DNA of 64,000 bases, taken from sequence record NZ_CP109675.1; one strand, given 5' to 3'. A program made the position numbers. Shown here in pieces: positions 45,001-48,000 of the stretch. Positions within the stretch are counted from its first letter, which is position 1. Every line of letters starts with the position of its first letter. This stretch comes from a plasmid.

Positions 45001-48000
45001 GCAGCCAGTAAAAGACCACTCAGGCCCGCAAACATATATCCGGAATGAAGTTGATACGCGGACTGAATATGGATCCTTGCTGATTTCTTTTGAAACAAAA
45101 CACTTATAAGCCCCACAACCAGCGGAAAAACAATACCGATTATAGTCAACTGGCTACCCAGTAAATTAGACATCCAGTCTGAAAGCTTGGTAATGCCCTT
45201 AAAATGCTGCACAGCGAAAGGTTGCAATACAGGGCGAAAATATTCGACCACGCCAACAGCCCCGAAGGCTGCGGACCATAGAATTAGCATAGCCCGGACG
45301 TAATGGGTGGAGCAGGAAACAAGTATTCTCTCCACCGGGTTCCAGCGTAGTTTTTTGTAATCCCGGTTCGACTTCAGGCTCCGTCGGAGTTCAGCTCTCA
45401 CCTGCCATGAGAGACTTTTTAGAAGTTTTCCAAACATAGATATTCTGCGTGTTCCATAAGAAATTTTATGAATAATAAGCGGTAGTGACCTTTTTTTCTC
45501 TGGAAAATGTCACCCGATGCCCTTCGTGCAAAGTTCGTCTCCCTGTTATCCGATTTAGCCAGAAACCGGATCTGCGCGGCGGGAAACACGCAAAGGATAT
45601 GATAATTGAATCACTCACATAAAATCATACTAAGTGTGATATTTATCATTATTCATGAAATCACTTCTGATATGATATTAACTTAATATCAAATGAATCA
45701 TACGTGATATGATTTTATCGCAATCTGTTACTCATTATTCCAGGAGCGCAGCATGTCCAGTACCGGGCCGACACTGAATCTCACCTATGACGAATTGCTT
45801 GACGAAATCAAAAGCATCCTTCGCGTGCTCAGCCGGCACAGCAGTTCTTCCCGGGATGACTCTTCCACCACGGCTGCCTTTGACAGGGGGAGTTGCAGCG
45901 GCGCCATTGCGCTCTGGTATTCACTGGCATTATCAATGAGGGCGCCGGGGCGCGACTGTGAGGAGGATCGCAGACAGCTTCGGCTTCTGGCCGGACTGAT
46001 CCTCGAAAACCAGGAGCCGCCTGCCGATGGCCGCTGAGAAACACCGCCGCCCATCGCCGCTACAGCGGCGGGTGCTGATTGTGCTGGCCGCCCTCGGTGC
46101 GAAACGTCCGGGACCGGTGGCCACGCGGGATATTGAGCGGGTGCTGGAGCAGGGCGGGGACGCCCCGGTGTACGGGCCGAATCTCCGCGCCTCCTGCCGG
46201 CGCATGGAAGCTGCGGGCTGGCTGCGCACCCTGCGAGCCCCGAACCTGCAGCTGGCCGTCGAGCTGACGGACGCCGGCCGTGCGCTGGCCGCCCCGCTTC
46301 TCGCTGACGAACAGGCGCGCGTCCTGGCGGAGCAGCGCGCGACAACGGTCCGGGTTCTGCCCCTGATCCCGCCCGGCCAGGCAGACGAGGCTCACGACCG
46401 GCCGGTGGAGCTGGACGGCATCTGGCACCTGGCGTGCCGGGGCGACTACGTCATCCGCCTCGACGGGACCACCTGTCTCCAGCTGTGGAACACGGCCGGG
46501 CAGGTGACGCGTATGACGGGCGATCCCCTTCAGGTGGCGCAGTGGCTCCAGGCCTGCCACGGGGCGGGTATTGCGGTCCGGATGCAGATCAATGAGAGCA
46601 CCACGCCGGAGGCGGGCACGCTGATCGGTACCGAGCCGGAAGACCTGACCGGCACCTGGTACCGCCAGCTGGACGTCGCGCTTCAGGCACAGGGGATCAC
46701 CGGTCTGACTGAGGATATTCGCCTTGCCGTGGTGAGCCCTGAGGAAGCCCTCCGGTCGCTGCCGGCACCGGCGCGGCTGCTGCACGTTCTGCGCGAAAGC
46801 CCGGAGGCGTTCCCGCTCACGGCTGCCGGGTATGAAGAAGATTCCGGCGCCGCTCTGGACACCCTGCTGGCCGGGGCCGGATTCACGTCGGGACAGGCAC
46901 AGGAGCTGCGGCTGCACCGCATCCGCTGGGCTCAGATGAGTCAGGAAGACGCTGACCGGCGCGAACTGAACAGCCTGCTGGATGAGCTGGAACGGCGACA
47001 GCTGTACTGCAACCGCGAACAACTGACGGAGATTGTGTTTTCGCCGGTCCGTAAACCCGGCGAGCGCTGGACTGACCGTCTGCAGTGGCTCCTGATGACG
47101 GACGGATTCGGGTTCCGGAGTCCGCTCTCCCGTGACGCAGGCTCCAGGGCGCTGACGATCCTGGCCGGTTACACGGGGCAGGAGGTGGCGGACCATCTGG
47201 CCACGGTTATCGTCTGGAACGATGACAGCGCGGGGATGCCGTCATGAGCACAGGCAACGTCAATCTCATCGTCACCTGCACGCGCCGCAAAACCATAACA
47301 GCCGGTCAAACCGTCTTTCCATATGAACACGACGCCGGAAATGCTTATGAAGTCTGGCTGGAAAGGCTGGCCAGGGCGCGGAACGACGGCGCTGCCATAA
47401 CAGCAGGTGAACTGTATACGGGCCAGCACTGGAGCAGGGCTGCTGCGGCTGCAAAACGTACCGGCGCAGAGCTGTGGGTGATTTCAGCGGGTCTGGGGCT
47501 GCTGCACGTATCAGACCCGGTGGTCCCTTATGAGGCAACGTTCTCCTCGATGCCGTTTAGTCACAGCAGACTATGGGAAAGCCTGACAGCTTGCCCGCCT
47601 GCTGAACGACGGTATGCTTCCCTGAGGACGCTGATGCAGTCGAGGCCTGACGATCGGTTTGTGGTGGCCGCCTCTCCGGTGTACCTGCGTGCCGTCGATT
47701 CAGATCTGTATGCAGGAAGGGAGGCGCTCTGTACCCCGGAACAGCTTGTTGTGGTGACGTCAAAAGGTTACCAGGGAATCCTGAAGGGCAGCGTCATTTA
47801 TACCAGTGCAGACATGATAAATGCGCTCAACACGAATATGACTGGCCTCAATATCAGCTATGCCACTCAGTTACTTGTTAACGACGTATGTAAATAAGCA
47901 TCCAGGCAAGACGTAAGACAAACACTCACGACTTATTTTTGGTATACGTAGCTGAGAAACGATATCATAAGATATCAGGGAAATATTGCGTGCTCTGCTT

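Follow-up and report, generated by a model that had tools for sequence, protein, structure and literature searches.

This work concerns an operon of three genes, here called P1, P2 and P3, which occupies positions 45753-47897 on the + strand of a 64,000-nt stretch of plasmid DNA from sequence record NZ_CP109675.1 (the window, that is, the whole stretch that was analysed). An earlier reading of this DNA, made from the sequence alone and referred to here as the original prediction, had singled out the operon as compositionally foreign, translationally coupled and of unknown function, and as the strongest candidate for a new defence or addiction system. The trio does recur, but it is, judged from sequence comparison, assembled from separable modules, a YdfA/YdeA pair and a DpdC-like enzyme, and is not a categorically new system. 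The operon and its control region contain the following features (loci fetched from other plasmids and genomes are denoted below by L and a number).

45548-45606, + strand: conserved element with a hairpin ATCCG...CGGAT, GATCTGCGCGGCGGGAAAC and a -10-like GATATGATAAT (12-locus alignment)
45623-45641, + strand: operator-like palindrome 1, 2 mismatches to AATCATA-N5-TATGATT (pattern match, alignment)
45659-45677, + strand: operator-like palindrome 2, 3 mismatches (pattern match, alignment)
45696-45714, + strand: operator-like palindrome 3, perfect, AATCATA-CGTGA-TATGATT (pattern match, alignment)
45742-45746, + strand: AGGAG ribosome-binding site of P1, 6 nt before the ATG (read from the sequence)
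45753-46037, + strand: P1, 94 aa, divergent small helical protein of the YdfA family (profile-profile comparison)
46027-47247, + strand: P2, 406 aa, long YdeA form, with winged helix (46027-46311), beta domain (46378-46617) and helical C-terminal extension (46618-47247)
47244-47897, + strand: P3, 217 aa, short orphan DpdC-like (DUF6884) enzyme (Pfam, PADLOC, alignments)

The geometry was exactly as had been claimed, with three coupled open reading frames (ORFs) of 94, 406 and 217 aa behind the AGGAG; P1 and P2 overlap by 11 nt (ATG at 46027, TGA at 46035-46037) and P2 and P3 by 4 nt (ATGA at 47244-47247). The description of a tightly coupled operon with unannotated function, set in accessory plasmid DNA, was equally sound. 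Two antisense ORFs that had been put down to artefacts are both present, yet the conserved families sit in the + strand frames, and these are the real ones because each encodes a protein family that is conserved and whose indels stay in frame. On identical DNA, the calls of the Prokaryotic Genome Annotation Pipeline differ (NZ_CP073773, NZ_CP126853): P2 has 406 aa in pK245 and 247 aa, with the N-terminus truncated, in other records, a call by which the winged helix is lost and the operon appears interrupted.

By homology, P1 and P2 are a YdfA/YdeA bicistron, which is a backbone cassette of enterobacterial plasmids. Relatives of P2 were found by tblastn in at least 5000 PLSDB records, only 287 of them full length; the common YdeA form has ca. 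190-196 aa, is annotated as ydeA on IncI plasmids and has ydfA before it, and P2 is ca. 72% identical to it over residues 5-194, the part with winged helix and beta domain. A small YdfA-like ORF abuts or overlaps the start of every P2 homologue examined, and the same layout is present in 11 other loci. The original prediction had seen no assignable features in either P1 or P3, and here it has to be corrected, P3 being DUF6884/DpdC-like and P1 a member of the YdfA family: a profile-profile comparison of P1 with YdfA homologues (hhalign) gave a probability of 93.9% (E 1.6e-7), with the motif (F/L)xL(S/T)Y(E/D)xL...W..LA in common, although P1 represents a rare and divergent subtype (18 clusters).

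The winged-helix-like start that had been suspected in the 406-aa product was confirmed by the AlphaFold2 model of P2 (pLDDT, the predicted local distance difference test, 84.5), in which Foldseek matched the N-terminal winged helix to MarR/PadR proteins with a probability of 1.0. The best Pfam score for P2 (PaaX-like, 14.2 bits) is below the cut-off of 24.8, and the likeness of fold to MarR/PadR is clear. Across plasmid families 75-86 of the 88 residues of the YdeA winged helix are identical in spite of many synonymous changes, which argues that it is under strong constraint at the protein level. The alignments also show P2 to be modular, the winged helix and beta domain always being present and the helical region of ca. 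210 aa optional, so that the protein holds, according to the model, ca. 290 residues of confidently folded domains that have no assignable family. Full-length P2 gave only winged-helix matches when compared by Foldseek with the PDB, no WYL ligand-binding domain follows the winged helix, and no PDB chain matched P2 or P3 significantly in sequence searches. The P2 family is a narrow one: clustering at 50% leaves 270 representatives, of which many are short fragments, and annotated relatives at a distance are lacking. Relatives of P2 and P3 numbered 0 in 50,697 phage records. BrxR and CapW are winged-helix regulators located upstream of defence systems, with palindromic operators in their own promoters. 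P2 resembles both by description, having an N-terminal winged helix, a small beta-rich domain and a place at the head of an operon with a possible defence cargo.

A high GC content is characteristic of the YdeA family. The original prediction had contrasted ca. 65% GC in the operon with ca. 38% on either side and had called the operon foreign; the contrast is there (ca. 0.63 overall, with a peak of 0.75 in 300-nt windows, against 0.36-0.41 immediately outside), but the values per gene are 0.59 for P1, 0.69 for P2 and 0.55 for P3. P1 and P3, like the nuclease and SRAP genes nearby, are close to other backbone genes (0.55-0.60 for the neighbouring integrase, nuclease and SRAP genes, in a window of 0.517), and the outliers on the low side are the 1039-aa gene (0.437) upstream and the acyltransferase gene (0.414) downstream. 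P2 is the only truly GC-rich gene, and the contrast is largely owed to its two low-GC neighbours. The reading of this composition as a recent acquisition does not survive the comparison with other plasmids: ydeA has 63-69% GC in IncI, IncF, IncFIB(K) and Enterobacter plasmids, with surrounding loci at 46-54%, and because this is so in every plasmid family the high GC content belongs to ydeA genes as such and is no mark of recent foreign origin. The same was seen in L002, L003, L006, L009, L012, L032-L034 and L036; in P2 the GC content at third codon positions is 0.81, and that of the preceding control region is 32-39%.

P3 belongs to DUF6884 (Pfam, 1.8e-10, 41.5 bits), and it matched the PADLOC model PDLC02818 for DpdC with 2.6e-43 and 146 bits, over profile positions 3-231 of 319, while the match to the NCBIfam YaaA model was weak (13.9 bits). 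PADLOC otherwise gave for P3 DpdC-type matches and a partial one to PDC-M57A (component A of the candidate system PDC-M57 is a DUF6884 protein), with no complete system set. Compared with the 318-aa DpdC of a verified dpdC-dpdA-dpdB-dpdD cluster, P3 has 32% identity over ca. 210 residues; it retains C12-T-R-R-K16 (CxxxK), ISAGLG at 80-85 and each of the 28 positions that are invariant in the alignment with genuine DpdC. The CxxxK and (L/I)SAxxG motifs of DUF6884 have been proposed by curators of Pfam as the likely active site (PMC11701544). DpdC of the Dpd system of Salmonella Montevideo hydrates preQ0 (7-cyano-7-deazaguanine) that is already part of DNA, giving the 7-amido form ADG, and does so in vitro independently of DpdA and DpdB (PMC10164549). 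Both proteins have a DUF6884/YaaA-like catalytic domain; P3, however, has 217 aa against ca. 318, is plasmid-borne and stands behind a winged-helix regulator pair. By these alignments P3 is a shortened DpdC paralogue. The original prediction had set a defence or addiction module against metabolism, and would have expected no clear enzymatic homologues, e.g., of a catabolic pathway; P3 does have one, but in DNA modification and not in catabolism. The helical C-terminus of P2 was considered as a stand-in for the missing C-terminal domain of DpdC and rejected (hhalign probability 0.1%).

Relatives of P3, scanned in one genome per species, fell into seven plasmid-type loci with 60-76% identity and fourteen chromosomal loci with 31-37%. 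The one chromosomal locus that was checked with PADLOC (L014) has its 318-aa homologue in a dpdC-dpdA-dpdB-dpdD cluster, and L021, L025 and L027 have the same pattern of ORF sizes. None of dpdA, dpdB and dpdD-K adjoins any of the plasmid-type copies of P3 examined. Short DpdC-like genes were found in as many as 2919 PLSDB plasmids, 2499 of these conjugative, for example in pOXA-48 (IncL/M, 49% identity to P3), IncHI2 (39%) and IncHI1B (40%) plasmids, whose copies have the short architecture in common with P3. These genes (e.g., L029 8992-9675, L030 6998-7663 and L031 7001-7657) encode 217-227 aa, are mostly annotated as hypothetical and are often located near H-NS, Hha, nuclease or umuDC genes. 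One assembly, DAMBQR01 (Pseudescherichia sp.), has both a chromosomal-type locus with a 318-aa DpdC (L020) and a plasmid-type ydfA-ydeA-DpdC-like-nuclease locus (L009). In a Serratia metagenome-assembled genome (L010 4183-6660) a gene of the P3 clade without ydeA is the last of four close or overlapping ORFs (206, 203, 183 and 225 aa), and relatives of some of these ORFs sit upstream of ydfA in L006 and L011.

The DpdC-like gene of pOXA-48 is itself part of an operon, which encodes a 395-aa protein with a RelB-like N-terminus, a 90-aa helix-turn-helix (HTH) protein and the 227-aa DUF6884 protein, the overlapping genes for DNA-binding proteins coming first. As in P1-P3, the DpdC-like gene is the last one, the plasmid is conjugative and there is no DpdA or DpdB; the DNA-binding partners, however, are unrelated to P1 and P2, being ribbon-helix-helix and HTH proteins rather than winged-helix ones. 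A kinship between P2 and the 395-aa protein was not supported (hhalign probability 2.8%). A helix motif GFT/S-x-x-Q-A/T occurs in P2 at residues ca. 283-295 (window ca. 46870-46910) and three times in the 395-aa protein (L029 7517-8704).

YaaA of E. coli and YfjM of B. subtilis (DUF6884) belong to a family of alpha/beta fold called “cantaloupe”, with a predicted DNA-binding cleft (PMC11701544), and P3 would share both the fold family and the cleft, although in sequence it is only remotely related to YaaA and much closer to DpdC. One explanation would accordingly be that P3 acts like YaaA or YfjM on DNA lesions, as part of a damage-tolerance set with SRAP, UmuDC and the nuclease and with no part for 7-deazaguanine. 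DUF6884 is related to the peroxide-stress DNA-binding protein YaaA, a pull-down with abasic and ribonucleotide lesions recovered its member YfjM (PMC11701544), and P3 does have its weak NCBIfam YaaA match; in addition, there is an SRAP gene 3 kb downstream of the operon, umuDC is on the same plasmid, and the DUF6884 operon of pOXA-48 is ca. 0.6 kb from umuDC. Yet the scores of P3 (146 bits against the enterobacterial DpdC model, 41.5 against DUF6884 and 13.9 against YaaA) and the 28 invariant columns common to it and genuine DpdC point away from YaaA, and the proximity of SRAP and umuDC may merely mirror the organisation of the plasmid backbone. We consider this explanation rather doubtful.

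The gene that follows ydeA varies from one plasmid to another. It is IbfA/HEC-04 in L034 and L036, a gene for a 350-aa protein in L033, a gene for a 164-aa protein together with Hha in L002 and L003, the DpdC-like gene in the window and in L006-L009, L011 and L012, and an insertion sequence (IS) element or nothing in further loci. The case with experimental data is ydfA-ydeA-ibfA of IncI1 plasmids (R64, pUA1135). In a study of 2025, reverse transcription PCR on an IncI1 plasmid showed a single transcript that covers ydfA, ydeA, ibfA and a proQ-like gene; ibfA confers abortive infection, with an efficiency of plating of 0.01 for the whole operon, a slightly stronger protection than the 0.05 of ibfA alone (PMC12111858). 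Compared with that operon, ours has homologous YdfA and YdeA, the same promoter and palindrome region, the same location in the variable region, beside the resolvase, and a cargo gene in the same orientation. The differences are that the cargo here is DpdC-like and there the ATPase-TOPRIM abortive-infection protein IbfA (HEC-04), that YdeA here carries the additional helical C-terminal region of ca. 210 aa, and that YdfA here is of the divergent subtype.

This modularity bears directly on the possibility of a self-contained defence system of three cooperating genes, in which P2 would sense or target invading DNA and P3 would be the effector. The original prediction had proposed to look for the triad in other genomes, and it does recur: in six of the seven plasmid-type loci, from different species, P3 comes immediately after P2, with a P1-like ORF before every P2. 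This recurrence, the tight translational coupling, the ca. 290 unassignable residues of P2, which could exceed the role of a regulator, and the fact that the same hotspot holds defence genes in other plasmids all speak for such a system. But thousands of plasmids have ydfA-ydeA followed by other genes and lack P3, the ca. 2900 short DpdC-like genes, like the P3-clade gene of L010, are mostly without ydeA, the presence of P3 does not go with either form of P2, long or short, and searches with Pfam, PADLOC and NCBIfam revealed no nuclease, NTPase or other effector domain in the operon. As a self-contained unit of three genes the proposed system does not hold up against these numbers, and we regard it as unlikely.

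The ca. 200 nt before ydfA are conserved in 12 loci (IncI, IncF, IncFIB(K) and Enterobacter plasmids), above the level of the YdfA coding sequence, and the hairpin, the GATATGATAAT element and the three palindromes are all within this region. A relaxed form of the palindrome pattern had 2 matches in the 64-kb window, where 0.02 were expected, both of them upstream of P1, and palindrome 3 is the sole match with zero mismatches in the 64 kb. All but one (L008 12193-12210) of the matches in the other fetched loci were also upstream of ydfA homologues. Palindrome 2 coincides with the published predicted -10 and transcription start of ydfA (PMC12111858). The palindromes are candidate operators of the YdeA winged helix. 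Rfam gave no family in or around the operon.

Operator-like palindromes in its own promoter, the usual type II layout, together with a small overlapping bicistron that has a DNA-binding component and a location among vapBC, ccdAB and relE-type modules in a stability region, could also describe a toxin-antitoxin or addiction module made of P1 and P2. Here, however, the DNA-binding protein is the product of the larger, downstream gene and has extra domains, the only fold found is the MarR/PadR-like winged helix and nothing resembles a toxin, and P1, P2 and P3 matched no toxin or antitoxin family in Pfam, NCBIfam or PADLOC. The deletion of the whole operon in pUA1135 was tolerated (PMC12111858), which is uninformative and lends no support. 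The addiction module of the original prediction is in our opinion extremely improbable.

The explanation that we favour, with a probability of ca. 0.55 for the composite as a whole, is that of an autoregulated YdfA/YdeA leader cassette driving a cargo enzyme that edits DNA bases. A P2 winged-helix dimer would bind the three palindromes overlapping the ydfA promoter and in this way set its own transcription and that of whichever gene follows, and P1, translationally coupled to P2, may act as its partner or modulator. P3 would flip and chemically edit a base in DNA, most likely one of the 7-deazaguanine type made elsewhere, be it in a Dpd-positive host or by a phage with a preQ0-modified genome, and the plasmid might use this editing at its interface with phages or restriction systems. 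The last step, whether the role is one of defence, counter-defence or lesion handling, is the weakest.

Several observations weigh against this leader-and-cargo explanation. The argument for the binding of P2 to the palindromes is their co-conservation, and a scan for consensus promoters and terminators gave nothing that would support or delimit the transcript. P1 and P2 are not recognised by Pfam or PADLOC, and the beta and helical domains of P2 have no match among solved or viral folds, so a role beyond regulation is possible for P2. P3 is without the 16-aa insert and the ca. 90 C-terminal residues (a domain) of the DpdC proteins of ca. 310-320 aa, and its substrate or chemistry may therefore differ. 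There is no DpdA or DpdB in the window (tblastn), and none is annotated on the identical plasmid pEh7_3; with no source of preQ0-DNA encoded on the plasmid, the proposed substrate of P3 is hypothetical. Finally, the long C-terminal extension of P2 is found without P3 (L003, L038) as well as with it (L006-L008), and P3 is found behind short YdeA forms (L011, L012), so that the length of P2 does not track P3 and a specific partnership of the two would be conjectural.

If the modified base were the plasmid's own, P3 might complete or alter 7-deazaguanine marks on plasmid DNA and help it to survive in, and transfer among, Dpd-positive hosts. Such a counter-defence would be in keeping with the frequency of Dpd clusters in relatives of the hosts (Enterobacter pulveris, Lelliottia, Raoultella, Kluyvera, Cedecea and Pantoea), with the Pseudescherichia assembly in which a dpd cluster (L020) and a ydeA-P3 locus (L009) coexist, and with the enrichment of short DpdC-like genes on conjugative plasmids (2499 of the 2919 records). 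A Dpd-positive host, however, supplies DpdC already, and protection should hinge on the insertion of preQ0 by DpdA and DpdB, which the plasmid does not encode. Besides, early expression on entry into a new cell is not expected, because the operon is ca. 26 kb from the origin of transfer (oriT) and in the orientation opposite to the leading-region genes. Together these points make plasmid counter-defence highly unlikely. A broader conjecture, and an improbable one, is that the short, partner-less DpdC-like enzymes represent a widespread and unrecognised plasmid function that acts on the DNA hypermodification of others, rewriting for instance the protective mark of an invader. They could convert dPreQ0 in 7-deazaguanine-modified phage genomes or in DNA from Dpd-positive donors, which would amount to defence or counter-defence by editing a foreign epigenetic base rather than by cutting DNA.

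The trio itself is less exotic than the original prediction had it; however, the YdfA/YdeA cassette and the orphan DpdC-like enzymes are each spread very widely over plasmids. If the leader-and-cargo explanation is true, YdfA/YdeA, which ranks among the commonest unannotated gene pairs of resistance plasmids in enterobacteria, would anchor the regulation of a slot for interchangeable cargo that is able to hold phage-defence genes, and this would help to predict plasmid-borne immunity. As for the orphan DpdC-like enzyme, it is found on ca. 4% of the sequenced plasmids, including epidemic pOXA-48 and IncHI2 backbones; plasmids would then meet 7-deazaguanine-modified DNA far more often than was thought, or else the enzyme family would have a second substrate.

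The operon is located in a variable region beside resolvase and partition genes. An IncI-like plasmid (MPF_I, with shufflon) found in Enterobacter hormaechei (pEh7_3) and in Yokenella matches the window with 100% identity, and the same block is present in IncR/IncF plasmids, e.g., pK245. Matches in the E. coli chromosome were discarded, as they correspond to an integrated Klebsiella plasmid fragment between IS elements. The genes flanking the operon are the following.

42318-45437, - strand: 1039-aa multi-pass membrane protein, divergent from the intergenic region shared with the operon
48063-50084, + strand: AT3-SGNH acyltransferase (Pfam Acyl_transf_3 and SGNH; GC 0.414)
50250-50747, + strand: secreted thermonuclease of the SNase family (Pfam SNase, 1.7e-25; signal-peptide-like N-terminus)

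The divergent position upstream of ydfA is variable too, being taken up by the PADLOC candidate PDC-S06, a DUF3800 gene or a member of the 1039-aa family. This family is present in 400 plasmids and has no domain matches. A homologue with 26% identity (L036 140-3349, in an E. coli IncF plasmid) has the same divergent position upstream of ydfA-ydeA-ibfA, and elsewhere the family lies beside vapBC, PDC-S06, DUF3800 and an S-4TM effector gene without ydfA. The 1039-aa gene as an obligate partner of the operon was rejected, given that it occupies the same hotspot without ydfA; by its distribution it is an independent hotspot gene and possibly a single-gene cargo. The defence setting proposed for the operon is supported as regards the hotspot, with IbfA/HEC-04 downstream and PDC-S06 upstream in other plasmids, and is not supported as regards a self-contained system of three genes. 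In E. coli and Salmonella plasmids (L034 568-8404 and L039 6702-12041) the surroundings of ydfA-ydeA, near the resolvase, are dense in defence or addiction genes, among them two HEC-04/IbfA paralogues, PDC-S06, vapBC, ccdAB, DUF3800 and the S-4TM effector.

Downstream, the nuclease gene is within ca. 30 nt of P3 in L007 or overlaps it, as in L008 and L009. P3 has 226 aa where the nuclease adjoins and 217 aa, with a different C-terminus, where the AT3 acyltransferase intervenes. From these arrangements the acyltransferase gene was probably inserted between P3 and the nuclease, and probably does not belong to the operon functionally, and the thermonuclease is probably the ancestral gene downstream of P3. 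The thermonuclease gene (+ strand) and the YedK-like SRAP gene (- strand) converge with a 34-nt overlap (50714-50747), and likewise in L006.

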